Below are positions 5,170 to 53,850 of a stretch of DNA of 64,000 bases, one piece after another. Source of the stretch: Dehalococcoidia bacterium (lineage in GTDB: Bacteria > Chloroflexota > Dehalococcoidia > Bin125); contig OZ247431.1 in NCBI GenBank assembly GCA_965232875.1, positions 1,110,273-1,174,272 on the forward strand. Direction: 5' to 3'. The position numbers and the translations under genes were made by a program. How positions within the stretch are numbered: the first letter of the stretch is position 1; each line of letters begins with the position of its first letter. The notes beneath the pieces were generated by a model. That model was not told the origin of the DNA, searched no databases, and saw nothing but the letters and a program-made list of their open reading frames with translations.

Positions 5170-8100
5170 ATGCCGCCGAGTGGATCTGTGTCGCCCGTTT
5201 CCAAGCTGTTGATTGCCAATCGTGGCGAGATTGCGATTCGTGTGGCTCGTGCGGCCTCCGATCTGGGCATTGCCACCGTCTCCGTCTACTCCAAGGACGA
5301 CGCCAGGTCTCTGCACGTTCACGCCGCCGATGAAGCGGTCGAGCTCGATGCGCTGGGCGTCCAGGCATACCTCGACATTGACGGCCTGATTGCGGCCGCG
5401 CAATCGACCGGCTGCGACGCGGTGCATCCCGGTTACGGATTCCTGTCAGAGTCGGCAGAGTTTGCCCGACGCTGCCGAGATGCAAGCATCACCTTCGTCG
5501 GTCCGACAGCGCATCTGCTCGATCTGTTCGGGGACAAGGTCCGCGCCAGGCAGGCTGCGAGAGAAGCCGGCGTGCCGGTGATTGAAGGCTCCGACCAGGC
5601 AGTCACCCTGAGCGAAGCGGTTGACTTCTTCGAGTCGCTGGGCGAAGACGCGGCGGTGATGCTCAAGGCGGTAGCAGGCGGCGGCGGACGAGGCTCGCGG
5701 GCAGTCACCGACATCAACGAAATGGAGGCCGCCTGGGAGCGCTGCGAGTCCGAGGCGCGCATGTCGTTCGGCTCCGGCGCGCTGTACATCGAGCAGCTCA
5801 TTCCCCGCGCCCGACACATCGAAGTGCAGGTGATTGGAGACTTGCACGGCGGTGTCGGTCACCTGTGGGAGCGCGAGTGCTCGGTCCAGCGGCGATTCCA
5901 GAAGATCGTGGAGATCGCGCCGGCGCCACACCTGGAAACATCCACGCGCGAAGCCATCGTCGAGGCGGCCGTACGTATCGCACGCGACGTGGGCTACTCG
6001 TCTCTGGGCACGTTCGAGTTCCTGTTGGACGCCTCAGACGGCTCGAATGACGCCTTCTTCTTCCTCGAGGCGAACGCGCGACTACAGGTCGAGCACACCG
6101 TGACCGAACAGGTCACCGGCGTCGACCTGGTCCAGTCGCAACTGCGAGCTGCGCAAGGCGCATCAATCTCCGACCTCGGCCTCGACGATCCGTCCTGGCT
6201 GCGTCCACGTGGGTTCGCGATTCAGACCCGCGTCAACATGGAAACACTCACGCCCGACGGCTCGGTGCGTCCGGCGTCAGGCACGCTCAAGGCTTATGAG
6301 GCGCCCTCTGGGCCGGGTGTGCGCACCGACGGCTTCGGCTACGTCGGCTACCAGACATCTACTTCGTTCGACTCGCTGCTGGCGAAGGTGATCGCGCACG
6401 CTCCGGCGCCAAGATTCGAGGATGCGTTGACGCGCTCGTTGCGCGCGCTGTCCGAGTTCCGGATTGAAGGCGTCGCGACGAACATCCCGTTCCTCACCAA
6501 CGTGCTGGAGCATGCCGACCTCGTCGAAGGTCGTGTCCACACTCGCTGGGTCGACGAGCAGATGGCCGAGTTGGCGACGTTCAATGGCGCGCAGCGCGTG
6601 CGCTATCTGCAAGCGGAAGCACCGACGGCCGACAGCGGGTTCGCCGGCGCGCGCGTTGATTCGCGTGATCCATTGGCGCTCTTTCAGCACGATCAGGAAG
6701 TCAAGCAGCAGCAGTCCTTGCAGGTCGTCGAGGAAGAGGCGCCGGACTTGACCGGTCCGGAAGGCTCAATCGGTCTGCCCGCGCCGATCCAGGGCACGAT
6801 CGTTTCGATCATGGTCGAAGAGGGTCAGGAAGTGCGGAAGGGCCAGGACCTCGTCGCGATGGAAGCGATGAAGATGGAGCATGTGATCTCCGCCGACCGC
6901 GACGGGATCGTCAAGGCGTTGGGCTGCTCCATCGGCGATGTGATCCGTGAAGGCTTCCCACTCGTCTTCATCCTCGAGGCGGAAGTCTCGGTCGAGGCGA
7001 TCGGTGACGACGACCTGATCGACCCCGATTTCATCCGACCCGACCTACAGGAAAACTACGACCGACACGCCTACACGCTGGACGAAAATCGGCCCATCGC
7101 TGTGTCCAAACGTCGCGGACGCGGCTACCGCATGCCGCGCGAGAACATTGAACAACTCGTCGATCCGGGTTCATTCCAGGAATACTGGCCGCTGATCGTG
7201 GCGCGTCAGCACCAGCGCAATACCGACGAGCAACTGAGAGAGAACACACCTGCCGACGGTCTGCTCGCCGGTACGGCGACGATCAATGGCGACCTGTTTG
7301 ACGATGAGCGGGACGCCCGCGCGATTGTCGTGCATTACGACTACACGGTGCTCGCGGGCACGCAGGGCGGTCGCAATCACTACAAGCAGGACCGCATGTT
7401 TGAAATGGCGCGCCGCTTCAACTTCCCCATTGTCTTCTACACCGAGGGTGGGGGCGGAAGGCCCGGCGACGACCGGACCGGTCCCGGCGTGGCGTTCGAT
7501 ACCTACACGTTCACGCAGTTTTCGAAGCTCTCGGGCCAGGTGCCGCTGGTCGGTGTGACCAATGGTCGCTGTTTCGCCGGCAACACGGCGCTGCTTGCCT
7601 GCTGCGACGTGATCATCGCCACTGAAGGCTCAACCGTCGCGATGGGCGGTCCGGCAATGATCGAGGGCGGCGGCCTCGGCATCTATACGCCGGAAGAGGT
7701 CGGACCGATGTCGTTCCAGGTCCCGAATGGTGTGGTCGACATCCTCTGCAAGGATGAGGAAGAGGCGACCGATATCGCCAAGAAGTATCTGAGCTACTTC
7801 CAGGGACCGATCAAGGAATGGACCGCGCCCGATCAGCGCCGTCTGCGCCACATCGTGCCTGAGAACCGGTTGCGTCTCTACGACATGAAAGAGATCATCC
7901 ACACGATCGCCGATGAAGGCTCGGTGCTGGAGATTCGCGAGAAGTTCGGGATCGGGATCATCACTGCGTTCATCCGCGTCGAGGGACATGCGATCGGCGT
8001 GATCGCGAACAACCCGCATCACCTGGCCGGCGCGATCGACTCTGACGGCTCGGACAAGGGCGCGAGATTCCTGCAGCTCTGCGACGCGTTCGATATCCCC

Positions 8101-8592
8101 GTGCTCAGTCTGATGGATTGCCCCGGCATGATGGTCGGCCCCGATGTCGAAGCGACGGCGCTGGTGCGTCACTGTGCACGGATGTTCAACACCGGGGCCA
8201 ACTTGAGTGTGCCGCTGTTCGGCGTGGTCGTGCGCAAGGCGTATGGACTCGGAGTCCAGGCGATGTGCGGGGCCAGCGCGCTGGTCGGATTCTTCACTGT
8301 CGCCTGGCCGACGGCCGAGTTCGCCGGCATGAACATCGAAGGTTCAGTGAAGCTTGGATATCGCAAAGAACTCATCGCGATCGAGGACCCCGAGGAGCGG
8401 ATCGAGACCTACGAGCACATGGTGGCGCGAGCGTACGACAACGCCAAAGCAGTCAACTCAGCCGCCGGCGGTGGTCTCGATGATGTGATCGATCCCGCAG
8501 ACACGCGCGAGTGGATTGCCAACGGCCTCAAGCGCCTCCCGCCAACGCCAGAGCGCACTGGCAAGAAGCGTCCCTACATCGATACGTGGTAA
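5170..8592 (+). CDS. Single-chain multidomain biotin-dependent acyl-CoA carboxylase (BC - BCCP - CT)
   Basis: 1140 aa. N-terminal biotin carboxylase (LIANRGEIAIRVARAASDLGI..., ATP-grasp). Biotinyl domain with the EAMKMEH biotinylation motif near residue 560. C-terminal ~520-aa carboxyltransferase domain (propionyl-CoA carboxylase beta-like, GGGRPGDD). RBS GGAGTGA precedes the start. Confidence 0.9.
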   Translation: MPPSGSVSPVSKLLIANRGEIAIRVARAASDLGIATVSVYSKDDARSLHVHAADEAVELDALGVQAYLDIDGLIAAAQSTGCDAVHPGYGFLSESAEFARRCRDASITFVGPTAHLLDLFGDKVRARQAAREAGVPVIEGSDQAVTLSEAVDFFESLGEDAAVMLKAVAGGGGRGSRAVTDINEMEAAWERCESEARMSFGSGALYIEQLIPRARHIEVQVIGDLHGGVGHLWERECSVQRRFQKIVEIAPAPHLETSTREAIVEAAVRIARDVGYSSLGTFEFLLDASDGSNDAFFFLEANARLQVEHTVTEQVTGVDLVQSQLRAAQGASISDLGLDDPSWLRPRGFAIQTRVNMETLTPDGSVRPASGTLKAYEAPSGPGVRTDGFGYVGYQTSTSFDSLLAKVIAHAPAPRFEDALTRSLRALSEFRIEGVATNIPFLTNVLEHADLVEGRVHTRWVDEQMAELATFNGAQRVRYLQAEAPTADSGFAGARVDSRDPLALFQHDQEVKQQQSLQVVEEEAPDLTGPEGSIGLPAPIQGTIVSIMVEEGQEVRKGQDLVAMEAMKMEHVISADRDGIVKALGCSIGDVIREGFPLVFILEAEVSVEAIGDDDLIDPDFIRPDLQENYDRHAYTLDENRPIAVSKRRGRGYRMPRENIEQLVDPGSFQEYWPLIVARQHQRNTDEQLRENTPADGLLAGTATINGDLFDDERDARAIVVHYDYTVLAGTQGGRNHYKQDRMFEMARRFNFPIVFYTEGGGGRPGDDRTGPGVAFDTYTFTQFSKLSGQVPLVGVTNGRCFAGNTALLACCDVIIATEGSTVAMGGPAMIEGGGLGIYTPEEVGPMSFQVPNGVVDILCKDEEEATDIAKKYLSYFQGPIKEWTAPDQRRLRHIVPENRLRLYDMKEIIHTIADEGSVLEIREKFGIGIITAFIRVEGHAIGVIANNPHHLAGAIDSDGSDKGARFLQLCDAFDIPVLSLMDCPGMMVGPDVEATALVRHCARMFNTGANLSVPLFGVVVRKAYGLGVQAMCGASALVGFFTVAWPTAEFAGMNIEGSVKLGYRKELIAIEDPEERIETYEHMVARAYDNAKAVNSAAGGGLDDVIDPADTREWIANGLKRLPPTPERTGKKRPYIDTW
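8541..8592. repeat. Left copy of a 52-bp imperfect direct repeat (last 17 codons plus stop of the carboxylase gene)
   Basis: GCCAACGCCAGAGCGCACTGGCAAGAAGCGTCCCTACATCGATACGTGGTAA. Matches 9654-9705 at 48/52 positions. Confidence 0.8.
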
Positions 8593-12607: not shown

Positions 12608-13072
12608 CTAGGTCTGCGGCGGCGGATCAACCAACGCAAACGTCAAGCGACCTTCCGCAGCGGTCTCCCCCTCGACTGTCGCTTTGGCGCTGGCTCGTCC
12701 GATGCCTCGGCGCAGACGATCCATTTCCACTTCGAGTCTCAGTTGATCTCCCGGCACGACCTGGCGTCGGAAACGGACGCCGTCTATTCCGGCGAAGAGA
12801 CCTAGCTTGCCCTTGAACTCGTCAGCCGACAGAGCCGCGACGGCGCCGGTCTGGGCGAGCGCTTCGATGATCAACACGCCGGGCATGATCGGATTGTCGG
12901 GGAAGTGACCCTCAAAGAACCACTCGTTGGTCGTCACGTTCTTGAGACCGACCGCGCGTTTGCCCGGCTGCAGTTCGACAATCCGGTCGACCAGCAGGAT
13001 TGGGTATCGGTGGGGGATGATGCGACGAATGTCTCGTACATCCAGCGGCAGTTCGTAGTCGGCCATGGTCAC
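12608..13072 (-). CDS. fabZ: 3-hydroxyacyl-ACP dehydratase FabZ
   Basis: Hot-dog fold signature [19 protein letters not shown], 154 aa. Confidence 0.9.
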
Positions 13073-13899
13073 AGGTCCTTCAGGATGTTGATGATCTGTT
13101 CGGCGGCATAGTCGGGCATCGGCACGTTCGCCGGACGAATCTCGTCGGGATGCAGTCCGTGATAATCGGAGCCAATGGTCGGCGTTAAGCCAAGCGTTCT
13201 GGCGAGCCGCTGGCCGTTCGCGATCTCGTCTGGTCCGTCGTTTCGGTAGTAGATTTCGAGACCGTCGCCGCCCGCGTCTGCAAAGGCAATTGTTGCGCTC
13301 GTCGGCTCGTCATAGCGGGTGGGATGCGCCAGGGAGGCGAATCCGCTGGCTGCGTGGATCATTGCCAACGAGTCGGTCAGACTCAACAGTGCCCGAGGAA
13401 TGTAAGCAGGGCCGTCGTTACGTAGGAATCGATTGAATGCATCCGGAACAGACTCGACATGCCCGGCCTCGACGAGCGCCCGCGCTATGTGGGGACGGCC
13501 AATCGATGCTCCGTCGGCGATCGCGGCGACCCGCTCGTAGTCAATCTCGAGTCCAAGTTCGCTCAATCGCTCCACGGTTCGCCTCGCCCGAGACTGGCGT
13601 TCATGACGGTAGTCGGCGAGTTGGCGCTCGAGGTCGGCAAGTGGGGCATTCGCCGCGAAATAGCCGAGCACATGCAACTCGCCGAGTACCGGGTCATTGA
13701 CGCCGATTTCGACTCCCGCGATCACTTCGACGCCTCGTCGGCGGCCTTCCGCCTGCGCAATCTCGACGCCTAACAGGGTGTCATGATCGGTGAGCGCCAA
13801 TAGTTCAGCGCCACGCTCGGCGGCTTGCTGCACAACCCACTCTGGCGGCTTCACGCCGTCGGAGTGAGTGCTGTGCGTATGCAGGTCGAGCCGCGCCAC
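13069..13899 (-). CDS. PHP-domain metal-dependent phosphoesterase (TrpH/YciV family)
   Basis: N-terminal [12 protein letters not shown]...ALTDHD motif. Confidence 0.8.
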
Positions 13900-21327: not shown

Positions 21328-21473
21328 GCCGACCACCGTCATACCCGCGCTTGCCGCGGGTATCTCGCCGCGTTCTCTACGACCGTTGAGCACACGTCGA
21401 GATTGCCGCGCCGGAGCGCGGCAATGACGGATCCTGCTGGCCTTGTCTCAACAGCCGCTTGTTTATCGCTGCG

Positions 21474-43057: not shown

Positions 43058-43822
43058 ATGCCTCCACTGGTCACCCACATGATTGCCGCCGTCCGCGCGG
43101 GTGGACAGATCGGCGCGGAAGACCCAGCACTCGATTTCAAGAACGGCGACTACCTGCTCGGCGCAACGACGCCCGATATCCGCGTGCTCACCCGTTGGGA
43201 TCGCGAGCGCACCCACTTCTTCGACATTTACGACGACGGCCACCAGGACTGTGTCGAGAAATTCTTCGACGCCCACCGCACGTTTCGGGACCCGTCCAAC
43301 TTGTCTGCGCAGACCCGCGCTTGGGTAGCCGGATACCTCACGCACGTGATCATGGACCAGGAATACGTCCTAAAGATCTACCGACCATTCTTCGGCAGCC
43401 GATCCGTGCTCGGAGGCAGTTCACACGCCAACCTGCTCGACCGCGTCCTGCAATACGAAATGGATCGCCGCGAGCGGGAATCGGGCGATCAAATGCACCA
43501 AATCAGGCAGTCACTGTTTGGCTCGGCCGTCGAGATTGACGCCGGCTTCGTCGACCGTCCCTTGCTCACGAAATGGCGAGACACCACCGCAGCCATGACC
43601 GAGCACCCGCCCGACTGGGAACGGTTCTCATTCATCGCCTCACGGCACTTGAAGAGCGCCGGGATTGAAAGCGAGTCCGGACTACGGGACTTCATGGACA
43701 ACATCCCACAACTGCTCGACGACACCATGTCACACGTCGATCAACGCGCCCTCGACGGCTTCTTCGAATCAACGGCGGAACTTACGGCAAGCGTTCTCCG
43801 CGACTGGCTGGGCACAGACTGA
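43058..43822 (+). CDS. Hypothetical protein, possibly a metal-dependent hydrolase (zinc phospholipase C-like fold)
   Basis: 254-aa ORF with N-terminal VTHMIAA and several His/Asp. Assignment tentative. Confidence 0.45.
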   Translation: MPPLVTHMIAAVRAGGQIGAEDPALDFKNGDYLLGATTPDIRVLTRWDRERTHFFDIYDDGHQDCVEKFFDAHRTFRDPSNLSAQTRAWVAGYLTHVIMDQEYVLKIYRPFFGSRSVLGGSSHANLLDRVLQYEMDRRERESGDQMHQIRQSLFGSAVEIDAGFVDRPLLTKWRDTTAAMTEHPPDWERFSFIASRHLKSAGIESESGLRDFMDNIPQLLDDTMSHVDQRALDGFFESTAELTASVLRDWLGTD

Positions 43823-45192
43823 TGGTCAGCGCCACCGACAAGGTTGAAACGCAAATCCCGATCTGGCGAGGCGCAGCGGAAGCGCGTGAGCAGTTGCTCT
43901 CACGCAGACGTCCCGATGACGACGAACTGAGCGATGTCGAGCGAACCATTCTGCGTCGCCTCTTCGACGACGAGCCGGAGTTCGAGGAAGCTGTGCGCCG
44001 GATCATCGAGGGCGTCCGAACCGGAGGCGATGAAGCCGTCCGTCAAATCGCCGAAGCGATTGACGGCGCCGCGCCGGATTCGATCGTCGTCACGGAGGAA
44101 GAGTTTGCCCAGGCTCGCCGCGAGGTCTCGCCTGAGTTGGTCTCAGCGCTCCAGCACGCCGCCGAGCGTGTTCGCCGATACCACGAAATGCAACTCGAGC
44201 ACGCGGCCAGGTCCTTCTCCAGCGACGGTCTCGGCCAGGTCGTGCGGCCGCTCGCGCGCGTCGGGCTCTACGTGCCGGGCACAGCCGCTGTGTATCCGTC
44301 AACGGTGCTGCACACCGCCATTCCAGCCCAGGTTGCAGGAGTGCCCGAAGTCGTCATCGCCTCGCCGGCCGTGCCGGCCCAAGACGGTACCGCTACTGTC
44401 AACGCGCTCAAGCTCGTCGCTGCAGAAATCGCCGGCGTCGACACGGTCTACAAAGTCGGTGGCGCGCAGGCCATCGCGGCGCTGGCCTACGGCACTGAGT
44501 CAATCGGCGCAGTCGACAAAATCTTCGGACCGGGCAACCGTTTCGTCACAGCGGCCAAGCGACGCCTCTACGGAGTCGTCGGCATCGACGCAATCTACGG
44601 TCCCACCGAAACCCTGATCGTCGCCGACGACACGGCTAACCCAGAACTCGTCGCAGCCGACCTCCTCGCCCAGGCTGAGCACGACAATCTCGCCGCGCCG
44701 ATTCTGATCGCGACCAGTGAATCGTTCGCCGAGTCCGTCGTCGCGCAACTGATTGAACAGACCATCGACCTGCCCCGCCGCGAGATCGCCCTCAACGCTG
44801 TCCGCAATCGAGGTGGGCTCGCCTTCGTTCCCGACCTCGAAGAAGCGCTGGCCATTGCCAACGAGTACGCACCCGAGCATCTCGCGCTCGTCGTCAAGGA
44901 TGCCCACCAACGCATCGGCGATGTGCGAAACGCTGGCGGTTTGTTCGTCGGCGAAGCCTCGCCCGAGGCGCTGGGCGACTATGTCGCCGGACCCTCGCAC
45001 GTCATGCCCACCGGTGGCTCGGCACGATTCGCCTCGGCGCTGAATGTCGGCGAGTTCATGAAGATCACAACGGTTGTCCAGGTCACTGACGACCTGCTCG
45101 ACGAAATCGCCGGCGACGCGGAACTGATCGCCCACGCCGAGCACCTCGATGCCCACGCCCGCTCACTCGAACGGCGACGCCGAGACCGATGA
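43822..45192 (+). CDS. hisD: Histidinol dehydrogenase
   Basis: IDAIYGPTETLIVADD...AQAEHD signature. Confidence 0.9.
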   Translation: MVSATDKVETQIPIWRGAAEAREQLLSRRRPDDDELSDVERTILRRLFDDEPEFEEAVRRIIEGVRTGGDEAVRQIAEAIDGAAPDSIVVTEEEFAQARREVSPELVSALQHAAERVRRYHEMQLEHAARSFSSDGLGQVVRPLARVGLYVPGTAAVYPSTVLHTAIPAQVAGVPEVVIASPAVPAQDGTATVNALKLVAAEIAGVDTVYKVGGAQAIAALAYGTESIGAVDKIFGPGNRFVTAAKRRLYGVVGIDAIYGPTETLIVADDTANPELVAADLLAQAEHDNLAAPILIATSESFAESVVAQLIEQTIDLPRREIALNAVRNRGGLAFVPDLEEALAIANEYAPEHLALVVKDAHQRIGDVRNAGGLFVGEASPEALGDYVAGPSHVMPTGGSARFASALNVGEFMKITTVVQVTDDLLDEIAGDAELIAHAEHLDAHARSLERRRRDR

Positions 45193-46304
45193 GTTCCACA
45201 CCACCATCGATTCGTCCGCATCTCGCCCAACTGCCTGGCTACGCGCCGGTTGTCCCGCTCGCCGAACGCGCACGCCAGGCCGGTCTCGAACCCGAGGACT
45301 GTCTCAAGCTCGACGCCAACGAGAATCCCTACGGGATGCATCCAAGAGTCCGCGAAGCGCTGGCCACAGCGTTGTCCGACCCCAACTTCGGCTCCATCTA
45401 TCCCGATCCCAACCAGGCGACGCTCAGAGCGGCGCTGGCCCGATACACCGGCATCGACGCTTCGATGATCGTCGCCGGCGCCGGCGCCGACGAGCTGTTG
45501 GATCTCACCTTGCGAGCATTGCTGAGCCCCGGCGCTTCAATCATTACTTGCTCACCCTCGTTCGGGATGTATCCCTTTCTCGCCGATCTGAACGAACTCA
45601 ACCTCATCGACATCCCTCGAGACCACGACTTCGCGCTTCCAACCGACGAGCTGTTGGATGCGGTCCGCCAGAGCAAAGGCGATTCCGTCGTCGTTCTCAC
45701 GTCGCCCAATAATCCCAGCGGCGATCTAGTCCCAGTAGAGGTGATCCGAGCACTCCTGACTTCGGGCGCAACGCTGATGTTGGACGAGGCGTACATCGAA
45801 TTCGCCGGGCTCGAGATGTCGGCGCAATACCTGCTCTCCGAGTTCCCGCGCCTGATCATCATGCGCACCTTCAGCAAATGGGCCGGGATCGCCGGTTTGC
45901 GGCTCGGTTATGCGCTGGCCCATCCCGAACTCATTGCCAACCTGATCAAGGTCAAGCAGCCGTACAACCTCAATCAGGCGGCGGAAGTCGCCGGCATCGC
46001 AGCGATCGATGCGGCGGAAGAAATCGGCGAGCAGATCGACGCCATCCGCCAGACCCGTGATTCCCTGTACGAAACACTTCAGAGCAACGAGAGCCTAAAG
46101 CCACTGCCCTCGCAATCCAACTTCATCCTGATCGAAGTCGATCCGGCGATCGGAACCGGACGAGAGCTGCACGATCAACTGGCCAATCTCGGAGTCTTCA
46201 CGAGAACCTACAGCGATCCGGCTCTCGCCTCCTACCTGCGAATCTCGATGCCAAGACACGATCAGTTGAACACGCTGATTGAGCGTCTCAACAGCTTGGT
46301 CTGA
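45189..46304 (+). CDS. hisC: Histidinol-phosphate aminotransferase
   Basis: LDANENPYG N-terminal motif; class II aminotransferase; 371 aa. Confidence 0.9.
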   Translation: MSSTPPSIRPHLAQLPGYAPVVPLAERARQAGLEPEDCLKLDANENPYGMHPRVREALATALSDPNFGSIYPDPNQATLRAALARYTGIDASMIVAGAGADELLDLTLRALLSPGASIITCSPSFGMYPFLADLNELNLIDIPRDHDFALPTDELLDAVRQSKGDSVVVLTSPNNPSGDLVPVEVIRALLTSGATLMLDEAYIEFAGLEMSAQYLLSEFPRLIIMRTFSKWAGIAGLRLGYALAHPELIANLIKVKQPYNLNQAAEVAGIAAIDAAEEIGEQIDAIRQTRDSLYETLQSNESLKPLPSQSNFILIEVDPAIGTGRELHDQLANLGVFTRTYSDPALASYLRISMPRHDQLNTLIERLNSLV

Positions 46305-46344: not shown

Positions 46345-46920
46345 ATGCAGGAGGATGCGATGCGGCTCTCGGAACCACGATTACCACCACTGACGATTGA
46401 GACGGCGGAAGGCGAGTCCAAGGCGCAACTGGAGCGCGCCGAGGCTCGCGGCGGACGGGTGCTCAATATCACCCGCACCCTGGCGCACTATCCCGAGCTC
46501 TCCTCCGCCTGGGGTCGCTTCGCCCGACACGTCTTGGCCGGATCGTCGCTGCCCGAGCGCGAACGCGAACTGATCATCCTGCGCATGGGCTGGAACTGTC
46601 AGTCCGGCTACGAGTTTGGCCAGCATCGGCGCATGGGCCAGGAAGCCGGACTCAGCCTCGACGAAGTTGAGCGGGTCAAGGAGGGACCCGGGCACGACGC
46701 CTGGACCTCGCACGAAGCTGCTCTGCTGCAGGCCGCCGACGAATTGCATTCTGACGCGTTCGTCAGCGACGCAACCTGGAACAAACTGGCCGAGCGCTAC
46801 AACACCCATCAGATGATGGATGTGGTCTTCGCCGCCGGACAGTACAACCTCGTCTCGATGGCGCTGAACACACTCGGCGTGCAACTCGAACCGGGCACGC
46901 CCGGCCTCGAACTCGACTAG
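46345..46920 (+). CDS. Carboxymuconolactone decarboxylase (AhpD-like) family protein
   Basis: CMD-family similarity. Confidence 0.75.
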   Translation: MQEDAMRLSEPRLPPLTIETAEGESKAQLERAEARGGRVLNITRTLAHYPELSSAWGRFARHVLAGSSLPERERELIILRMGWNCQSGYEFGQHRRMGQEAGLSLDEVERVKEGPGHDAWTSHEAALLQAADELHSDAFVSDATWNKLAERYNTHQMMDVVFAAGQYNLVSMALNTLGVQLEPGTPGLELD

Positions 46921-46937
46921 ACGAGTCAGGAGCCACC

Positions 46938-48149
46938 ATGCCCGGTCCGCTTGACGGCTTACGAGTGCTCGATTTCACCTGGGCTCTGGCCGGTCCCTAC
47001 GGTTCGATGATCCTCACCGACCTCGGCGCCGAGGTCTACAAGGTCGAACATGTCGACACCAACGAGCGCCATCGCGGCGCCGGACCGTATGTACACGGCG
47101 TCTCGACTTACTTCTTCAGCGTCAATCGGGGCAAGAAGTCGGTCACGCTCGACCTCAAGCATCCTGAGGCAGTGCAGATCATCAAAGATCTGATCGACCC
47201 TGCATCCGGTGGCATCAATGTTCTGACCGAAAACTTCCGACCAGGCGCGATGGAGCGCCTCGGCCTCGGCTACGACGAGCTCTCTGCCATCAATCCGGGT
47301 CTGATCTACGCATCAACCTCAGGCTTCGGACACACCGGGCCCTACCAGCACCGACCCGCCGTAGATGTGATCGTGCAGGGCATGGGCGGTGTGATGAGCA
47401 TCACCGGACACCCGGACGGACCGCCCGCGCGACCTGGCTACAGCATCGGCGACATGGCCGGCGGGATGTATACGGCAATCGGAGTGCTGGCTGCCTTGCA
47501 CGAGCGACATTCGTCTGGTCTGGGACAGCACGTCGACGTCGCCATGCTCGACGCGCAAGTCGCGCTGCTCGAAAATGCTGTCGTCCGCGCCGCCAACACC
47601 GACGAGGTGCCCGGTCCAATCGGCACCCGGCACCCGCTGGTCACGCCGTTCCAGGCGCTGCCGACCGCCGACGGCTGGATGGTGATCGCCGGCGTCAAGG
47701 ACTGGCAGCTCTTCTGTGTCAAGATCGAGCGCGACGACCTGCTTCACGACGAACGCTTTCAGACCAATCCCGACCGCACCGAGCATCACGCCGACCTCGA
47801 ACCGATCCTGTTTGAGGCCTTCAAGAAGCGAACTACTGCTGAGTGGGAGGCCGAACTCGAAGGCGTCTGCATCGCCGCCCCGATGAATACGATCCCGGAG
47901 ATCATCAACGATCCACACATCGCCGCCCGAGGCATGATCGCCGACCTCCCTGTCGCCAAGTCTCAGAAATCAATCAAAGTCTCCGGTTCCCCCGTCCACC
48001 TCTCCCGAACCCCTATCCAACTCCGTCGAGGAGCCAGCGCCATCGGCGAGCACACCAGAGAAGCCCTGGAACTAATCGGCCGCTCGCCCGAGCAGGTCAC
48101 CGAACTCGTCGAGTCCGGCGTGATCTCAGTCGACGAACCGACTACGTGA
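46938..48149 (+). CDS. Family-III CoA-transferase (CaiB/BaiF)
   Basis: LDGLRVLDFTWALAGPYGSMILTDLGAEVYKVE signature, 403 aa. Confidence 0.85.
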   Translation: MPGPLDGLRVLDFTWALAGPYGSMILTDLGAEVYKVEHVDTNERHRGAGPYVHGVSTYFFSVNRGKKSVTLDLKHPEAVQIIKDLIDPASGGINVLTENFRPGAMERLGLGYDELSAINPGLIYASTSGFGHTGPYQHRPAVDVIVQGMGGVMSITGHPDGPPARPGYSIGDMAGGMYTAIGVLAALHERHSSGLGQHVDVAMLDAQVALLENAVVRAANTDEVPGPIGTRHPLVTPFQALPTADGWMVIAGVKDWQLFCVKIERDDLLHDERFQTNPDRTEHHADLEPILFEAFKKRTTAEWEAELEGVCIAAPMNTIPEIINDPHIAARGMIADLPVAKSQKSIKVSGSPVHLSRTPIQLRRGASAIGEHTREALELIGRSPEQVTELVESGVISVDEPTT

Positions 48150-48340
48150 GCCTGATCCGGAATTTGAACACCGCCTGCTTGCGCAGGCGGTCACCCCTCC
48201 CCGCTGCTCCTCGATTCACTCGGGGAACAGCGGGGCGGCAATGTTGCGGCGTGCTCTCGCACAAGTGAGACAAAATCGTCGATATGGCACTGAAGCCGAC
48301 ATGGCACTGAACCGGCGCCGAACGACGCCTGTTGCGTCCC

Positions 48341-48541
48341 TTACAGATTCGCGTTGTCGTAGACTTCCGCGTTCTGCTGGTTAGCAGAACTCTGCCACTG
48401 AGATCCTTGGCTGCCGCCGAGGAATTGTTGGCCCGCGTCACGCTGACCGCCGGCAACCTTGGCCAACTCGTCAGCGCTGAGCTCGTCGCCCTCGTTCTGA
48501 GCTTCGACCTGGTCCGCGGACGTATCTGTTTGTTCTGGCAT
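48341..48541 (-). CDS. Candidate double-glycine-leader peptide precursor (RiPP/bacteriocin-like), 66 aa
   Basis: MPEQTDTSADQVEAQNEGDELSADELAKVAGG | QRDAGQQFLGGSQGSQWQSSANQQNAEVYDNANL. LSADELAKVAGG fits LSxxELxxIxGG. SD-like GGGGTGA 5 nt upstream of the ATG. Confidence 0.45.
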   Translation of the reverse strand: MPEQTDTSADQVEAQNEGDELSADELAKVAGGQRDAGQQFLGGSQGSQWQSSANQQNAEVYDNANL

Positions 48542-48660
48542 ATGTCACCCCGTTTCTGCTTCTAAACTAGCAAATCAGAATCTCCTTCGCAATCGGCACT
48601 CGACGGCCCGCTTACCATTCTCAAGTGATCTCCTCCCCCGACCGCTCAAGGACCATTCCG

Positions 48661-49518
48661 ATGACCAATCGAGCCAGCTTCGCCGACCTCGTCCGCTCCG
48701 GAGAACCGATCCTTGCTCCCGTCGCCCTTGACCCGCTCTCTGCGCGGCTGGTCGAATCGCTCGGCTTTGAGGCGGCTTACCTCTCCGGCGGCGGCTTCGG
48801 CTTCCAACTCTCCGTCTCCGAGGCGCTGCTCACGATCACCGAGGTTGCCAACCTCACTCGACAGATCACCGCTCGCTCCGACGTCCCGCTGATCGTAGAC
48901 GGCGGCGTTGGCTTCGGCGACCCGCTGCACACCTGGCGCGCCGTACGCGAGATTGAGGCGGCGGGCGCGGCGGCGATTGAGATCGAGGACCAGGTCGCGC
49001 CCAAGCGTGCGCACCACCACAAGGGTGTCGAGCACCTGGTGCCGATGGAGATGATGGTCGACAAGGTGCGCGAAGCCGTCGACGCGCGCCGCGATGAGGA
49101 CTTCATCATCATTGCCCGCACCGGTGCAGTCCGGAATGAGTCCTTCGAGCGAGCGCTAGAACGCTGCGCCGCCTATCGAGAGGCAGGCGCCGATGTGCTG
49201 ATGCTGTTTACAAGCGATGAAGCTCAGATCGCCGAAGCAGGCAGGGTCTTGGGCGGACCGCTGTCGATGATGGCTCCCGCCGACCGGCTTGATCGTGAGT
49301 CTCTGGCGAGTCACGGCTTCAACGTTCTGATCGACCCCTTCACCGGCCAAGTTGCCGCCTTTGGCGCGATGCGCGACGCCTACCGAAACATCGCCGAGGT
49401 CGGAGCCTCAGGCCGAGAGGTCGATGACCTGATGTCACTGTATCGCGAAGTTCAGGACATGGCCGGAATGGATGATCTCTACGCGATCGAAGAGCGCACG
49501 ACAGAACGCCCCAGCTAG
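48661..49518 (+). CDS. Isocitrate lyase/PEP mutase superfamily enzyme of uncertain specificity
   Basis: YLSGGG, DGGVGFG, IEDQVAPKRAHHH. The K(K/R)CGH catalytic-Cys loop is replaced by KRAHH. Start at the ATG 48661 with AAGGA upstream; the track GTG 48625 is possibly over-extended. Confidence 0.8.
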   Translation: MTNRASFADLVRSGEPILAPVALDPLSARLVESLGFEAAYLSGGGFGFQLSVSEALLTITEVANLTRQITARSDVPLIVDGGVGFGDPLHTWRAVREIEAAGAAAIEIEDQVAPKRAHHHKGVEHLVPMEMMVDKVREAVDARRDEDFIIIARTGAVRNESFERALERCAAYREAGADVLMLFTSDEAQIAEAGRVLGGPLSMMAPADRLDRESLASHGFNVLIDPFTGQVAAFGAMRDAYRNIAEVGASGREVDDLMSLYREVQDMAGMDDLYAIEERTTERPS

Positions 49519-49554
49519 AGCGCCAGGCCCCGCTTCAACGAAACCCTCGCAATC

Positions 49555-49665
49555 GTCCCCATTCCGTCATTGCCGCGCTCCAACGCGGCAATCTCGCTGC
49601 ATCCGGTACCGACGTTTGTGCTCGAATCAGCGAGATACCCGCGACAAGCGCGGGTATGACGGAGT
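49555..49665. repeat. Two adjacent CCGTCAT-type hairpin units (CCGTCATTGCCGCGCTCCAACGCGGCAATCTCG and CGAGATACCCGCGACAAGCGCGGGTATGACGG) 3' of the PEPM-family gene
   Basis: Shares the GTGCTCGAATCAGCGA-TACCCGCGACA-GCGCGGGTATGACG block with 41242-41297. Confidence 0.6.
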
Positions 49666-49717
49666 TGCCCGCGCGCACTTGTCTCTTTCCGAAGGTCTCT
49701 TTCACGCCTAGTGCGGA

Positions 49718-50146
49718 TCAGTCAGTCGTCCAGTGGCGCAGGATTGCTTCGGTTTCCTCGACGTGCGTGGATTCGTCGCGGATGAAGTCTTCCAGCGTGA
49801 TCTTGAGTCCAATGTCGCCGTATTCCTCGGCTTGTCGAGAACGCGTGACGTAGCGGCTGGCTGCGTCACGTTCCATCTCCAGGACGCACTCGAGCATCGC
49901 GCGATTGCCCTTGGGCAACGGAATCTCCGCCGGAGTCGTCGTCGGTTCTCCGCCCAGCGTCACGATCTTGTTAGCCAGGTAGGCCGCGTGGATCTGCTCG
50001 CCGTTGACTTCCGATGAGAAAAACGTCGAAAGCTGGGGTCGATGCGGTCCGTCAACGCGAGCTGCGTATGTGATGTAGGTGATGATCGCCGCCAGCTCGG
50101 AAGCCAGGTCCTCGTTCAATAGTCCGATCAACGTGTCCCGATCCAT
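49718..50146 (-). CDS. Ferritin-like (bacterioferritin/Dps-superfamily) protein
   Basis: 142 aa. Four-helix-bundle pattern LNEDLASELAAI..Y...A....E..HA..L...I..LGG.P. AGGAGA RBS. Confidence 0.6.
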   Translation of the reverse strand: MDRDTLIGLLNEDLASELAAIITYITYAARVDGPHRPQLSTFFSSEVNGEQIHAAYLANKIVTLGGEPTTTPAEIPLPKGNRAMLECVLEMERDAASRYVTRSRQAEEYGDIGLKITLEDFIRDESTHVEETEAILRHWTTD

Positions 50147-50259
50147 CGCCGCCTCGTCTCCTGTGGCCTCGCGCTGACATTGATGATGAAGAGCGCATGA
50201 GCGTGGCGCAACCTACTCCGACACTGGACATCGCCGCGCGCGTGCGACAGAGTGGACGC

Positions 50260-50847
50260 ATGCGCAACGCGACCGTCACTCGTGAAACTGGCGAGACATC
50301 AATCACGGTCAAGCTGAACCTCGACGGCTCCGGCAACGCACACGTGTCCACCGGAGTCGGCATGCTCGACCACATGCTGCACCAACTGGCGCGCCACGGT
50401 GGATTCGATCTGACCGTACAAGCATCAGGCGACCTATACGTTGACGCGCACCACACCTCTGAGGATGTCGCCATATCAGTCGGTCGAGCGCTCAACGAAG
50501 CGCTCGGCGACCGGGTTGGAATCGCACGCTTCGCCGACCGCACGGTCCCGCTGGACGAAGCGCTGATTCACGTCGCGCTCGACCTGAGCGGCCGACCCTA
50601 CGCAGCAATCGATCTGCACTTCCCCGCGCCAATGATCGGCGAACTGCCGTCCTCAATGGCCAAGCACATCCTCGAGACCATCGCCTACGAAGGCCGCCTC
50701 GCGCTGCACGTCAGGCAACTGGCCGGTGAGAACGAGCATCACATCATCGAAGCAACGTTCAAGTCGCTAGCCCGCTGCCTGCGGGACGCAGTGCGAATCG
50801 TCGACGGATCAGGCGCTCCGAGCACCAAGGGCACACTCAGTTCGTAG
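50260..50847 (+). CDS. hisB: Imidazoleglycerol-phosphate dehydratase
   Basis: MRNATVTRETGETSI...DAHHTSEDV IGPD motifs. Start moved to the internal ATG by alignment logic. Confidence 0.9.
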   Translation: MRNATVTRETGETSITVKLNLDGSGNAHVSTGVGMLDHMLHQLARHGGFDLTVQASGDLYVDAHHTSEDVAISVGRALNEALGDRVGIARFADRTVPLDEALIHVALDLSGRPYAAIDLHFPAPMIGELPSSMAKHILETIAYEGRLALHVRQLAGENEHHIIEATFKSLARCLRDAVRIVDGSGAPSTKGTLSS

Positions 50848-50860
50848 CCAAACGCAGCCG

Positions 50861-50978
50861 GCCCTCACCCCAGCCCTCTCCCAGAGGGAGAGGGAGTAGA
50901 GTCGATGGTTCCCCTCCGGGTCCCCTCTCCCTTCGGGTCCCCTCTCCCTTTGGGAGAGGGTTAGGGTGAGGGGTCTCC
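50861..50978. terminator. Palindromic element between convergent hisB and purS: candidate bidirectional terminator / REP-like repeat
   Basis: Outer GCCCTCACCC ... GGGTGAGGGG. Inner CCCTCTCCCAGAGGGAGAGGG hairpin. Tandem GGGTCCCCTCTCCCTT x2. Overlaps the last codons of purS. Confidence 0.5.
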
Positions 50979-52191: not shown

Positions 52192-53850
52192 TCAATCTGG
52201 TCTCCAGCGGGCGTCTTGGCCTCTGGGTTTGGCGACGATCTGGAGGCGCCCGGTTGACCTGGTGGGTGTGGGGACTTGTTGGAGGAGTTCGTGCATGTAG
52301 CGGTCGGCGTCGAGGAGGTCGTCGTTCCGTTTGCGGGGTTTGGGATCGGGATCGTCGCCGGTTTGCCAGACGTACTCTTGCATGCGCTTGGGGAAACAGG
52401 TGAGGTTCTCGGTGTAGAACGATGCGGGCGGGTCGGCGGCGAGCGGTTCGTGGACGAGGTTGACGCCGTAGAGCACGGAGCCGGGGTTGCCGGCGGCGGG
52501 GACGACGTGGATGCCCTGTCGTCGTTGGTGGTCGATCCAGGCGGATTGGGAGCGGTCGGCGGCCCAGCGGATGGGACCGAACTTGCGCTGGCATTGACGC
52601 TGCCATTGTTCGAGTCGCTGGATGACGCCGGGGCCTCGGTCTTCGAACTCGGCGAGTCGGATCAGGGTGAAAGGGTGTTGGGAGGAGGTGGGAGGTGTGC
52701 TGCGGCTGGGGGACGGCTGGCGGGTGGTGTCGTTGATGGGCTTGGGCGGTTCGTGATTCCTGCCTGCGCAGGAATGACGGAGGGGGGAGACCCCCCCCCC
52801 TCTGCCTGCGGCATCTCCCCCCGCAAGGGGGGGAGAGAGGAATGGGGGGTGGGTGAGGCCTGCGATGATGCCGGCGGTGTGGTGGGCGGTGTCGGTTTGG
52901 CCGCCGAAGTCGAGGCCGCCGATGATGTGGGTGAACGGTGGGAGGGGGCCTGACCAGCAGTGGCGGTCGGGGTCGAAGTCGGGGTAGACGCGGCCCATGA
53001 GGGCGTTCCAGCGGCCGTCGATGAAGCGGTCGCGCCATTGTGGGGGCAGGAGGGCGTGGTTGAGCTGGGCGTAGTTGTCGGGCAGGTGGGGGTTGTCGGC
53101 GATTTTGGCGGGGATGAAGGCGACCTGTCCGCTGGCTTCGTGGAGGGCGTCTTCGGGTAGTTCACGGTGCAGGAACCAGCGCTGGAACCAGCCGGGCCAG
53201 GGGTTGGAGGCGGCGACGAACCAGCGCTGCGGCTGGGCCGGGTGGCGCAGGCGGGTGAGCAGCATCAGGGCGGCGTCCTCGTCGACCTGACCGGCTTCGT
53301 CGATCAGGACGGCGCCGTACTGCTGGGAGCCGAGGCCCTGCCAGTCGGAGAGGTGGCGGAAGTTGACGGTTGAGTGTTGGTCGCGGGGCCAGCCGGGTAG
53401 CCGCAGCTGGACGAGCGAGGTCGGGGCCTGCTGGCGTCGCTGGATCAGTTCGGGCGGGCAGACCTGGAAGAACTCTTTCATGGTGGTGGAGGAGAGGTCG
53501 GAGAGGTGGTGTCGGGCGACGAGGATGTTGTCGCCGGGGTGCATGAGCGCGGCGTCGATGGCGAGTTCGGCGATGGCGCGGGTTTTGCCCCCGCCCATGG
53601 CGCCGCCGTAACCGAGCAGGGTGAGGCCGGGATCCGGAGCATCGATCAGCGCTTCGTACAGCTCGTGCTGCCGCTCCGTCGGTCGAAAACTCCGACCTGC
53701 GCGCAAATCCGCCAGCCGCCTCAACGTTCGTCTCCGCATAGTCACTGCTCGCATCGCATCAGATCCTCTCTCGCCACGGCGAACGCCCGTCGCTTCGTTC
53801 AGATCAGCAACAGTACATATGAGCGGATACCCTTCGCCACTCCTCCTCAC
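52192..53850 (-). CDS. Phage terminase large subunit-like protein (ATPase plus RNase-H-like nuclease) with an in-frame repeat-element insertion
   Basis: Walker A GYGGAMGGGKT. Walker B AVLIDEAGQV. Nuclease motifs HIIGGLDFGG and RKRNDDLLDADRYMHE. Residues ~335-395 (PFLSPPLAGGDAAGRGGGVSPLRHSCAGRNHEPPKPINDTTRQPSPSRS) are encoded by repeat DNA at 52752-52850. Confidence 0.75.
   Translation of the reverse strand: MRRSGEGYPLICTVADLNEATGVRRGERGSDAMRAVTMRRRTLRRLADLRAGRSFRPTERQHELYEALIDAPDPGLTLLGYGGAMGGGKTRAIAELAIDAALMHPGDNILVARHHLSDLSSTTMKEFFQVCPPELIQRRQQAPTSLVQLRLPGWPRDQHSTVNFRHLSDWQGLGSQQYGAVLIDEAGQVDEDAALMLLTRLRHPAQPQRWFVAASNPWPGWFQRWFLHRELPEDALHEASGQVAFIPAKIADNPHLPDNYAQLNHALLPPQWRDRFIDGRWNALMGRVYPDFDPDRHCWSGPLPPFTHIIGGLDFGGQTDTAHHTAGIIAGLTHPPFLSPPLAGGDAAGRGGGVSPLRHSCAGRNHEPPKPINDTTRQPSPSRSTPPTSSQHPFTLIRLAEFEDRGPGVIQRLEQWQRQCQRKFGPIRWAADRSQSAWIDHQRRQGIHVVPAAGNPGSVLYGVNLVHEPLAADPPASFYTENLTCFPKRMQEYVWQTGDDPDPKPRKRNDDLLDADRYMHELLQQVPTPTRSTGRLQIVAKPRGQDARWRPD
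52752..52850. repeat. Chimeric repeat inside the terminase ORF: CGTGATTCCTGCCTGCGCAGGAATGACGG hairpin unit fused to the right half of the ~200-bp palindromic element (GCCTGCGGCATCTCCCCCCGCAAGGGGGGGAGAG); includes C10 and G7 homopolymers
   Basis: Direct comparison with 4868-5082 and 2184-2346. Confidence 0.7.

Follow-up and report, generated by a model that had tools for sequence, protein, structure and literature searches.

A probably old, layered hisC-hisB interval with a CoA-transferase and a PEP-mutase-fold enzyme in an uncultured Dehalococcoidia-class Chloroflexota

We analyzed a 64-kb stretch of genomic DNA (hereafter the window) in which the histidine genes hisD (histidinol dehydrogenase, 43822..45192, + strand; PF00815, 487.8 bits, E 3.6e-146) and hisC (histidinol-phosphate aminotransferase, 45189..46304, +; PF00155, and TIGR01141 at 273.3 bits, just short of its 276.55 cut-off) are separated from hisB (imidazoleglycerol-phosphate dehydratase, 50197..50847, +; PF00475, 196.9 bits; NF002116, 268.6 bits). 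Between them lie genes for a CMD-like protein, a CaiB-type CoA-transferase, a 66-aa ORF with a double-glycine (GG) leader, a PEPM-fold protein whose loop reads KRAHH and a ferritin-like protein; all the features described by the first-pass annotation are present, where it placed them or a few bases off. The his genes are indeed interrupted relative to outgroups, hisD-hisC-hisB being contiguous in four Coriobacteriia-type loci (L034-L037). A composition scan of the window gave the same base composition for 46-50 kb as for its flanks. As context outside the hisC-hisB interval, the conserved block begins with an ORF for a 254-aa ZnPLC-like protein (43058..43822, +; weak PF00882 match, E 2.5e-5, below cut-off), whose stop overlaps the hisD start and which is found 5' of hisD in every related locus and in the more distant relative L083.

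The CMD/AhpD-fold protein (46345..46920, +; PF02627, 35.8 bits vs a cut-off of 23) lacks the CxxC peroxidase motif; it reads NCQSGYEFGQH, and alignment to 2oyo showed that CxxC is not conserved. It is followed by a family III (CaiB/BaiF) CoA-transferase of the dicarboxylate-type branch (46938..48149, +; PF02515, 390.7 bits), which scores under every NCBIfam equivalog cut-off, its best sub-threshold matches being mesaconate, glutarate and oxalate transferases; the closest solved structures are YfdE (oxalate) and SUGCT (dicarboxylates). A second CoA-transferase paralogue is present in the window at 2383-4830.

Downstream of CaiB, the junction with the PEPM-like gene holds a strain-specific filling of 508 bp (48150..48657), similar among the related loci only to that of the near-identical genome L078; in other relatives the position of the peptide gene is empty or occupied by other single-gene cargo. 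Two GC-rich hairpins (48170..48235) in the convergent CaiB/peptide gap, where 48150-48340 folds with -82.9 kcal/mol (z = -3.4), are likely to act as a bidirectional terminator; the terminator scan did not call them, and there is no T-run. The peptide gene follows on the - strand (48341..48541), with the leader ...DELSADELAKVAGG and a core of 34 residues.

Double-glycine leaders follow the consensus LSxxELxxIxGG, and the peptides bearing them (class II bacteriocins, competence pheromones and some RiPP precursors) are exported by peptidase-containing ABC transporters. The window leader, ...ELSADELAKVAGG, fits this consensus and was the sole match of a GG-leader regex over the whole 64 kb, while the core differs from those peptides in being acidic and Q/N/S-rich rather than hydrophobic, with no Cys and no Lys. 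Only three relatives were found in about 15 billion proteins, giving a family of four known members, and within the related loci the gene is confined to the window and L078. Relatives with 45% identity (P0123 and P0125) keep the leader and a C-terminal QQN..Y...N motif, and upstream of P0123 stand a GAAGGAGG ribosome-binding site and a -10 element resembling TGnTAnAAT. A Peptidase_C39-ABC exporter gene pair is found 3.7 kb away from P0123; this exporter link is seen in one species (L084-L086), with IS fragments between exporter and peptide gene. Such conservation and signals, together with a gene-like codon-position GC, argue against a fortuitous or degenerating ORF in junk sequence, which we consider improbable even though the family is so small, profile searches gave no Pfam or PHROG match, and codon differences between the window and L078 are 6 nonsynonymous to 1 synonymous in the peptide ORF, compared with 15 to 57 in CaiB. 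Those changes would fit fast evolution and also weak constraint; between L085 and L087 the DELSTEELAE(L/I)AGG motif shows four synonymous differences and one conservative one, the whole ORF diverging roughly 4-fold faster than the flanking sequence. The first-pass call of a GG-leader peptide is borne out. Its RiPP-like, peptide-modification role is not: the relatives adjoin a PCAT exporter, no RiPP maturase, exporter or immunity gene lies near the peptide, and neither maturase nor PCAT is found within the 64-kb window. The product appears to be an orphan double-glycine export peptide and not a substrate of the neighboring genes; its cleavage and export would fall to a C39-peptidase ABC transporter whose genes lie elsewhere.

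The next gene encodes a PEP-mutase/ICL-fold enzyme of an uncharacterised subfamily (PF13714, 139.6 bits); its ORF spans 48625-49518 (+), and homologues of 285-286 aa indicate that translation begins with the ATG at 48658 (48658..49518). The loop EDQVAPKRAHHHKG, kept in 118 of 120 homologues, stands in place of K(K/R)CGH, KRAHH lining up with the methylisocitrate lyase sequence KRCGH and with the KKCGH found in petal death protein. With residue roles taken from bioRxiv 10.1101/2025.01.06.631558 and in C. burnetii PrpB numbering, Y, D81, E110, H120 and R152 are kept and D54 is replaced by Glu, D83 by Gly and the catalytic-acid C118 by Ala. The predicted structure (AF2 pLDDT 92) gave Foldseek TM values of 0.83-0.88 to MICL, DMML, PPH, PDP and OAH at 25-29% identity, and was equally distant from all characterised branches.

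Like the K(K/R)CGH lyases of the superfamily, the enzyme has the PF13714 TIM-barrel, and it keeps EDQ, the oxyanion motif YLSGG, the leading Asp of DxD, the ARTx Arg and the loop His. It differs from them in the Cys to Ala change followed by His, in the Gly at the second Asp of DxD, in succinate/propionate-binding regions that are not conserved, in a prpB-model score (180 bits) about half the equivalog cut-off of 354, and in having CoA-transferase and crotonase genes as partners instead of prp genes. Judged by these residues, it seems to retain the Mg/2-oxyacid site, and the catalytic Cys is lost; without the lyase Cys it is not an isocitrate or methylisocitrate lyase, an assignment that the first-pass annotation had called unlikely from KRAHH.

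Just this combination, a lost catalytic acid and a kept Mg/oxalate-binding core, would suit a PA4872-type decarboxylase of free 2-oxoacids, which needs no such acid and would act on oxaloacetate or 3-methyloxaloacetate without a CoA ester, the CoA-transferase working on the same acid pool. PA4872 is an oxaloacetate decarboxylase of the superfamily that works on a Mg-bound 2-oxo acid without the lyase Cys, and its reported orthologues come from pseudomonads and a small number of Gram-negatives, with none from Chloroflexota (PMC8100219). Sequence comparison does recover the solved PA4872 structure (3b8i, E 3e-25), but the sequence is nearer to methylisocitrate lyases (E 4e-32), the fold favors no branch, and the coupling to CaiB and the CaiB-crotonase-PEPM trios described below would be left unexplained. 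We regard this reading as rather unlikely, though the strongest of the alternatives.

The last gene before hisB, antisense to the operon, encodes a ferritin-like four-helix-bundle protein (49718..50146, -; PF00210, 89.7 bits) whose closest solved structure is 2qqy, a 'Sigma B operon' protein (E 2e-27). The convergent PEPM/ferritin gap contains an inverted REP-like pair, CCGTCAT[T/A][G/C]CCGCG... (49561..49665), with units at 49564-49577(+) and 49649-49662(-) that fold as one composite hairpin (-77.2 kcal/mol, z = -3.4). The CCGTCAT repeat has 12 matches in the window vs 4.25 expected, with further pairs at 21336/21417 and 40935/41282; at this junction the pair is shared with relatives L003 and L078 only. 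As in REP/BIME palindromes, the units are short, imperfect, intergenic and often inverted pairs in convergent gaps, but their sequence differs and they occur here only in genomes of the closest sub-clade. The hairpins, earlier taken for the right-hand border of an insert, lie inside the interval and are a dispersed REP-like repeat, not a border.

The order hisD-hisC-CMD-CaiB-PEPM-hisB was found in 29/29 related Dehalococcoidia loci that reach from hisC to hisB, even where hisC is as little as 66% identical. Identities to the window were 82-99% for CMD, 86-96% for CaiB and 80-95% for PEPM, as compared with 66-94% for hisC; by this measure the three appear to be long-standing residents of the operon, conserved more than hisC itself. 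In L083 the order is hisD-hisC-PEPM-hisB, with PEPM alone in the interval. CMD and CaiB are clade-wide, the ferritin-like gene is present in 21/29 loci and the peptide gene in 2 genomes, a distribution suggesting four different histories for the five genes. The first-pass annotation had instead seen a five-gene insert splitting the operon, whose genes could form a small-molecule or peptide-modification module; on this reading the five would be one horizontally acquired, recent cassette. One can see why: the genes have no part in making histidine, they lie in mixed orientation, and they include a GG-leader peptide whose leader weakly matches TIGR04497 (19.3 bits, sub-threshold against a cut-off of 32). 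That proposal is now scarcely credible, because it is already contradicted by the synteny, an outcome which that annotation had itself counted as a refutation; in addition, the composition is normal, there is no integrase and no border repeat, the peptide is missing from 29 loci and the ferritin-like gene from 8, and the relatives of the peptide do not adjoin these enzymes.

What survives of the module idea is its enzymatic part. The CaiB|PEPM junction measures 9-50 bp in 15 relatives, and in most the stop codon of CaiB shares bases with the start codon of PEPM (ATGA); the two enzymes are probably a functional pair, which would be translationally coupled where the junction is unfilled. Among 49 metagenomic loci of the PEPM subfamily, counted where at least 1.3 kb was available on both sides and not all independent, a family III CoA-transferase is directly adjacent in 14 and one gene away in 9. 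These associations come in at least five arrangements, with transferases 33-65% identical to the window CaiB; in several lineages ECH_1 crotonases lie between or beside CoA-transferase and PEPM, and in L098/L099/L103 a homologue of the CMD-like protein (27% identical) adjoins CaiB-ECH-PEPM. Some adjacency is expected by chance because these genomes commonly carry CoA-transferase paralogues. A small-molecule module of CoA-transferase and PEPM-like enzyme, to which the CMD-like protein probably belongs as well, can be upheld, then, whereas nothing ties the peptide or the ferritin-like protein to the enzymes in function.

Its position between hisC and hisB, alone in L083 and kept throughout the clade, would be explained if the PEPM-like enzyme had a role in histidine metabolism, be it as the histidinol-phosphate phosphatase or in the conversion of an imidazole 2-oxo acid. 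No HisJ-type phosphatase is found within the 64-kb window, where the PHP protein at 13069-13899 best matches a nucleoside bisphosphate phosphatase, below cut-off, but only these 64 kb of the genome are in view. None of the 49 loci is next to any his gene, against 23 near CoA-transferases, the ZnPLC-like gene overlapping hisD is a more natural phosphatase candidate, and we know of no phosphomonoesterase precedent in the ICL/PEPM superfamily. A histidine role is accordingly very unlikely.

Our best guess for the CaiB-PEPM pair is a CoA-dependent organic-acid module, which would handle a di- or tricarboxylic acid via its CoA thioester. The family III transferase would load CoA on the acid, a crotonase would hydrate the ester in other lineages, and the PEPM-like enzyme, with its Mg2+/2-oxy-acid core kept and Ala-His-His at the catalytic-acid Cys, would carry out C-C cleavage or decarboxylation with release of a 2-oxo acid; the CMD-like protein may play a supporting part as decarboxylase or isomerase. 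C4-C5 dicarboxylates (itaconate, mesaconate, malate) are processed by the Ict-Ich-Ccl route and by SmtAB-Mcl of the Chloroflexus 3-hydroxypropionate bi-cycle. The relatives share the logic of these routes, a family III CoA-transferase, a crotonase-type hydratase and a Mg-dependent PEP/pyruvate-binding barrel enzyme, and the sub-threshold CaiB matches point the same way; the known lyases of those routes, however, are CitE/HpcH-type and not ICL/PEPM-type, and the window cluster has a CMD-like protein in place of a hydratase. The lack of a crotonase in the cluster of the window's clade counts against this reading, and to our knowledge no ICL/PEPM superfamily member uses CoA thioesters; adjacency to CoA-transferases could instead mean that the PEPM-like enzyme works on the acid in its free form, either ahead of the CoA transfer or following it.

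On balance, we consider it probable that the hisC-hisB interval of these uncultured Dehalococcoidia-class Chloroflexota is an old, vertically inherited, layered locus, whose core, (ZnPLC-like)-hisD-hisC-CMD-CaiB-PEPM-hisB, would be co-transcribed as one operon. Three later, separate additions would have been made at operon junctions: the antisense ferritin-like gene, the REP-like pair and, in this strain, the GG-leader peptide. The CoA-transferase/lyase-like module is clade-wide and has long been part of the his operon, to which ferritin-like gene, peptide gene and repeats were added separately.

Five open reading frames lie between hisD-hisC and hisB, and ORF calling together with family scans agreed with the gene list of the first-pass annotation. 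hisD (43822-45192, + strand; PF00815) and hisC (45189-46304, +; PF00155, TIGR01141) are followed by a CMD-fold protein (46345-46920, +; PF02627), the family III CoA-transferase CaiB (46938-48149, +; PF02515), a 66-aa ORF without family match (48341-48541, - strand), a PEP-mutase/ICL-fold protein, here PEPM (48658-49518, +; PF13714), and a ferritin-like protein (49718-50146, -; PF00210); hisB comes next (50197-50847, +; PF00475), with purS and purC downstream of it on the opposite strand. The PEPM ORF reaches back to 48625, the ATG at 48658 being set as its start by homologues of 285-286 aa. The interval has the same GC content as its flanks (0.59-0.66), and the remaining genes of the window are housekeeping ones (dcw cluster, recA, rny, pur genes, pgk, tpi).

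An Rfam search of 43-54 kb at a permissive threshold gave no leader, riboswitch or T-box; its sole match, a miRNA model on the palindrome at 50857-50975, was taken as chance. Promoter and terminator scans returned counts at or below shuffled expectation. This palindrome, a composite GC-rich structure in the convergent hisB|purS gap, contains the only two CCCTCTCCCnnnGGGAGAGGG units of the window, its arms (50862-50894 and 50940-50972) are 91% complementary, and it is probably a bidirectional terminator.

The interval had been described as a single insertion of five genes splitting the histidine operon, a reading that was not borne out by synteny. A hisC scan taking one genome per species yielded 33 related loci from Dehalococcoidia-class Chloroflexota MAGs, several of which, judging by their labels, presumably come from sponge metagenomes, and their gene content was read by tblastn with the proteins of the window. 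The order hisD-hisC-CMD-CaiB-PEPM-(ferritin)-hisB-purS-purC was found in all 29 loci spanning the interval, so that CMD, CaiB and PEPM lie between hisC and hisB in every one of them, and CMD was again the next gene in three truncated loci reaching beyond hisC. Such a common order in the relatives is what the annotation itself had named as refuting an insertion. Nor does the interval resemble a recently acquired island or cassette: the genes are not absent from relatives, composition is not unusual, border repeats are missing and no integrase figures in the ORF list of the window. Identity to the window across relatives is 82-99% for CMD, 86-96% for CaiB and 80-95% for PEPM, against 66-94% for hisC, indicating that these three genes are constrained at least as much as the his genes.

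hisD, hisC and hisB are contiguous in four Coriobacteriia-type outgroup loci, and thus the interrupted arrangement is derived, yet old. The five genes have differing histories. In the more distant relative L083 the order is hisD-hisC-PEPM-hisB in the same flanking context, without CMD or CaiB (PEPM 62% and hisC 49% identical to the window); the CMD-CaiB pair is clade-wide, and PEPM was probably the first arrival in the operon. Separately, in three unrelated Coriobacteriia-type outgroups (L038, L039 and L041) hisC and hisB are also apart, by 1.4-3.8 kb, which suggests that this junction was broken independently in further lineages.

The junctions between these genes are themselves variable. CaiB and PEPM are separated by 9-50 bp in 15 relatives; in most of them the PEPM start overlaps the stop codon of CaiB (…CAATGA…), and several have a GGAG motif within the end of CaiB, features that indicate translational coupling. 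Other cargo occupies this junction in 14 relatives: a secreted protein of 750-990 aa, a DNA methyltransferase-like ORF with a second ORF, or a 451-aa ORF without known family. Cargo was also seen at the hisC|CMD junction in 9 loci and at CMD|CaiB in 2. The CaiB|PEPM junction of the window holds 508 bp of sequence that recurs only in the near-identical genome L078, and blastn and tblastn detected no remnants of the relatives' cargo genes in it. No common repeats or hairpins were seen at the cargo ends in 12 filled loci; a 28-nt inverted pair in the window (46015-46042 and 49986-50013), considered as a border, falls inside the hisC and ferritin coding sequences and was treated as chance.

The secreted-protein family occurs at CaiB|PEPM in L001 (12978-15524), L004, L005, L006, L008, L011, L020 (two copies), L022, L024 and L030, and in L005 and L006 also at CMD|CaiB on the opposite strand. 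Its members have a hydrophobic, signal-peptide-like N-terminus followed by TTTLYPGWNLIGW, a HEYxHxxQ motif with a weak Peptidase_MA match, and CarboxypepD_reg repeats; they diverge far faster than their flanks (~69% nucleotide identity against ~90% protein identity of the neighbours) and are mosaic, the 95% identity between L004 and L005 being limited to the first 659 bp. At hisC|CMD, a 255-274-aa protein starting MKDQYAGxIGDxGKYGLLR and without Pfam match was found in L004, L005, L006, L029 (11157-11927), L032 and L078, and a ~290-aa protein, which has a poly-Asp tail and is hydrophobic over an N-terminal stretch, in L010, L020 and L025. The methyltransferase-like ORF, recognized by eye, and its companion of 236-248 aa are the CaiB|PEPM cargo of L007, L019 and L026, while L078 has an N6_N4_Mtase-HNH gene (947-2398) at purC|purB. 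Core-operon junctions in these genomes are hot spots that repeatedly take up single-gene cargo, including the fast-evolving secreted proteins.

The ferritin-like gene is present in 21 of the 29 spanning loci; where it is absent (L004-L007, L009, L023, L026 and L027), hisB starts 5-40 bp after PEPM. Its identity follows that of its neighbours, which suggests that most of the clade had it ancestrally and that losses came later. The protein (PF00210, 89.7 bits) has two ExxH di-iron motifs visible in its sequence, GEQIH and DESTH; its nearest solved structure is 2qqy, a Bacillus “Sigma B operon” protein, and it scores below the bacterioferritin equivalog (25.4 against a cut-off of 125.6). Nothing was found tying it to the enzymes as the proposed partner.

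The CCGTCAT hairpins that had been taken to border the insert (49564-49577, +, and 49649-49662, -) belong instead to a dispersed REP-like element, with 12 copies in the window (4.25 expected) and exact inverted pairs at 21336/21417, 40935/41282 and 49564/49649. The last pair, located in the gap where PEPM and the ferritin-like gene converge, folds into a single composite hairpin, and among the relatives only L003 and L078 have it there. A variant of the repeat (52767) also lies within a lone phage terminase-large-subunit-like ORF between purC and purB (52192-53850, -; phrog_2, E 3e-28), which sits in strong positive GC skew and near which no other phage genes were seen.

PEPM is a member of the superfamily of PEP mutase and isocitrate lyase (PF13714, 139.6 bits against a gathering threshold of 31.5). 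Structure prediction confirmed the superfamily's swapped-helix TIM-barrel fold (AF2 model, pLDDT 92) and placed the protein nearest to no single characterised branch, with TM scores of 0.83-0.88 to solved members; likewise, it is roughly equidistant, at 25-29% identity, from methylisocitrate lyase, dimethylmalate lyase, phosphonopyruvate hydrolase, petal death protein and oxaloacetate acetylhydrolase. All NCBIfam equivalog cut-offs were missed: prpB TIGR02317 (180.2 bits, cut-off 354.4), ICL TIGR01346 (31.5, cut-off 275.9), PEP mutase (95.8, cut-off 319.6), carboxy-PEP mutase (128, cut-off 420) and phosphonopyruvate hydrolase (96.5, cut-off 374). Its KRAHH loop aligns with the KRCGH/KKCGH of solved lyases, Ala replacing Cys in comparison with 3eoo, 1zlp and 9hra. 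The loop without its catalytic-acid Cys and the missed prpB and ICL cut-offs indicate that this is not an isocitrate or methylisocitrate lyase, an assignment that the annotation had already judged unlikely.

Of the 120 best homologues, which reach down to 55% identity, 118 share the loop form EDQ(V/I)xPKR(A/V)(H/S)HH(K/R)G, and the subfamily is abundant, with more than 5,000 database relatives. We mapped its residues by alignment onto C. burnetii PrpB, in which C118 is the catalytic acid of the K(K/R)CGH mobile loop, the C118S mutant is inactive, D54 and D81 are Mg2+ ligands, and Y40, E110, H120 and R152 are candidate base or substrate-contact residues (bioRxiv 10.1101/2025.01.06.631558). Y40, E110, H120, R152 and D81 are kept in PEPM; D54 is Glu, invariant across the subfamily, D83, the second Asp of the DxD, is Gly, and C118 is Ala followed by His. 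From this residue pattern PEPM should still bind a Mg-chelated 2-oxy acid and is predicted to be unable to protonate the carbanion by the route of the lyases.

CaiB matches PF02515 over its full length (390.7 bits; residues 5-373, profile 1-366 of 366), and its nearest solved structures are YfdE and SUGCT. Its best scores are with the mesaconate, glutarate and oxalate transferases, all below the equivalog cut-offs: succinyl-CoA:mesaconate (297 against 700), succinate-glutarate (291 against 750), CoA:oxalate (290 against 522), formyl-CoA (218 against 504) and carnitine transferase (110 against 413). The CMD-like protein matches the Pfam CMD domain with 35.8 bits and lacks the AhpD CxxC redox motif; it has one Cys only, and the C-l-Y-C of 2oyo aligns to q-s-g-y. 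A literature search for a module of CMD, CaiB and PEPM returned nothing relevant.

A metagenome scan with the PEPM-subfamily alignment gave 80 further, partly redundant loci, 49 of them flanked by 1.3 kb or more on each side. A family III CoA-transferase is directly beside PEPM in 14 of these 49 and one gene away in 9; no his gene is beside PEPM in any of the 49. The partner transferases represent several subfamilies, 33-65% identical to the CaiB of the window, and lie upstream, downstream or divergently. ECH_1 crotonases are interposed or adjacent to CaiB/PEPM in several lineages: CaiB-ECH-PEPM with a divergent homologue of the window's CMD-like protein (L098, L099, L103), divergent CaiB-ECH | PEPM (L110 and relatives) and PEPM-ECH-CaiB (L172). 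Further members are solitary or beside an enolase-superfamily gene. Elsewhere in the window, an 815-aa protein with two CoA_transf_3 matches (2383-4830, +) adjoins a 1140-aa fusion of biotin carboxylase, biotinyl domain and carboxyltransferase (5170-8592, +), and this pair is a second CoA-linked organic-acid locus.

The arrangement in L083 raised the alternative that PEPM supplies the histidinol-phosphate phosphatase, which we downgraded as no other locus of the subfamily is his-linked; a role of PEPM in histidine synthesis is unlikely because the linkage is confined to the lineage of the window. For the same step, a PHP protein (13069-13899) was considered as a HisJ-type phosphatase and set aside, its best score, below cut-off, being with nucleoside bisphosphate phosphatase or RNase RNM. 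A candidate for this phosphatase is the 254-aa product of a gene (43058-43822, +) that overlaps the hisD start codon and is conserved 5' of hisD in L083 as well as in all related loci; the protein matches Zn-dependent phospholipase C weakly, and no solved relative of it was found by sequence.

The 66-aa ORF had been regarded as a RiPP-like precursor. Its leader ELSADELAKVAGG, immediately 5' of the core, matches the double-glycine consensus LSxxELxxIxGG, and no other ORF of 30-150 aa matched this pattern when the six frames of the window were scanned. When 1.8 billion cluster representatives were searched exhaustively with HMMER, alongside word-indexed searches, three relatives were retrieved, namely P0121 (92% identical, from L078) and P0123 and P0125 (~45%, 69 aa), all keeping the double-glycine leader, the latter two as DELSTEELAE[L/I]AGG together with the C-terminal QQN..Y...N motif; the sole further hits, P0122 and P0124 (1505 and 2026 aa), highly repetitive and with 21 and 8 matched stretches, were judged spurious. 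Within the his operon the ORF is restricted to the window and L078 (~95% DNA identity), at the same place, and two strong hairpins lie in the convergent gap between it and CaiB. A Peptidase_C39-ABC transporter gene and another ABC gene lie upstream of P0123, 3.7 kb away and separated from it by IS fragments (L084-L086, one species), and the CaiB|PEPM junction of that MAG holds a secreted-protein gene instead. No such exporter was found within the 64-kb window. The precursor claim was not sustained: there is no adjacent maturase in the window, L078 or L085 (the P0123 locus), and no curated precursor family scored above cut-off, the leader-only match to TIGR04497, 'ATP-grasp target RiPP' (19.3 bits, cut-off 32), not being counted as membership.

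In the peptide ORF, 6 codons differ nonsynonymously and 1 synonymously between L078 and the window, against 15 and 57 in CaiB. Between L085 and L087 the peptide ORF differs at 8% of bases and the next 600 bp downstream at 2%, with four synonymous and one conservative differences within the GG motif. We read the 66-aa ORF as a real, fast-evolving export peptide, orphan in the window, and take it and its relatives as a new and very small family of such double-glycine peptides. P0123 and P0125 are followed, after about 700 bp, by a conserved ORF of 173 aa that is hydrophobic in its N-terminal half (L084/L085:8909-9430; L087:1143-1664); it has no homologue in the window and could encode an immunity or accessory protein.

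The best-supported reading of the interval is that the CMD-like protein, CaiB and PEPM form a CoA-dependent organic-acid module fixed inside the his operon of the clade, to which the ferritin-like gene, the REP pair and, in the strain of the window, the orphan export-peptide gene would have been added at junctions. Two chemistries are suggested by the missing Cys acid taken together with the CoA-transferases and crotonases that recur as partners: PEPM may cleave a hydroxyacyl-CoA, the thioester stabilising the carbanion, or it may act by decarboxylation, as does PA4872, described as an oxaloacetate decarboxylase of the PEPM/ICL superfamily (PMC8100219), to which PEPM has overall similarity only (3b8i, E 3e-25). 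A bolder proposal, which we consider rather improbable as it stands, is that PEPM, with a His-rich mobile loop in place of the Cys acid, acts on a hydroxyacyl-CoA thioester, cleaving or forming a C-C bond, as a non-orthologous analogue of malyl-/citramalyl-CoA lyase, and that together with the family III CoA-transferase and a crotonase or CMD-like protein it constitutes an unrecognised organic-acid route. If true, marine Chloroflexota would carry this PEPM-CaiB route widely, and one clade would have it hard-wired into its histidine operon.

Rather than a mobile cassette or a RiPP cluster, the split operon is an arrangement that is old, stable and specific to the clade. Judged by its residues and gene neighbours, PEPM represents an uncharacterised enzyme subfamily with a predicted 2-oxy-acid/Mg core, a lost catalytic Cys and CoA-transferase or crotonase company, and this subfamily offers a testable lead on organic-acid processing in uncultured marine and sponge-associated Chloroflexota.
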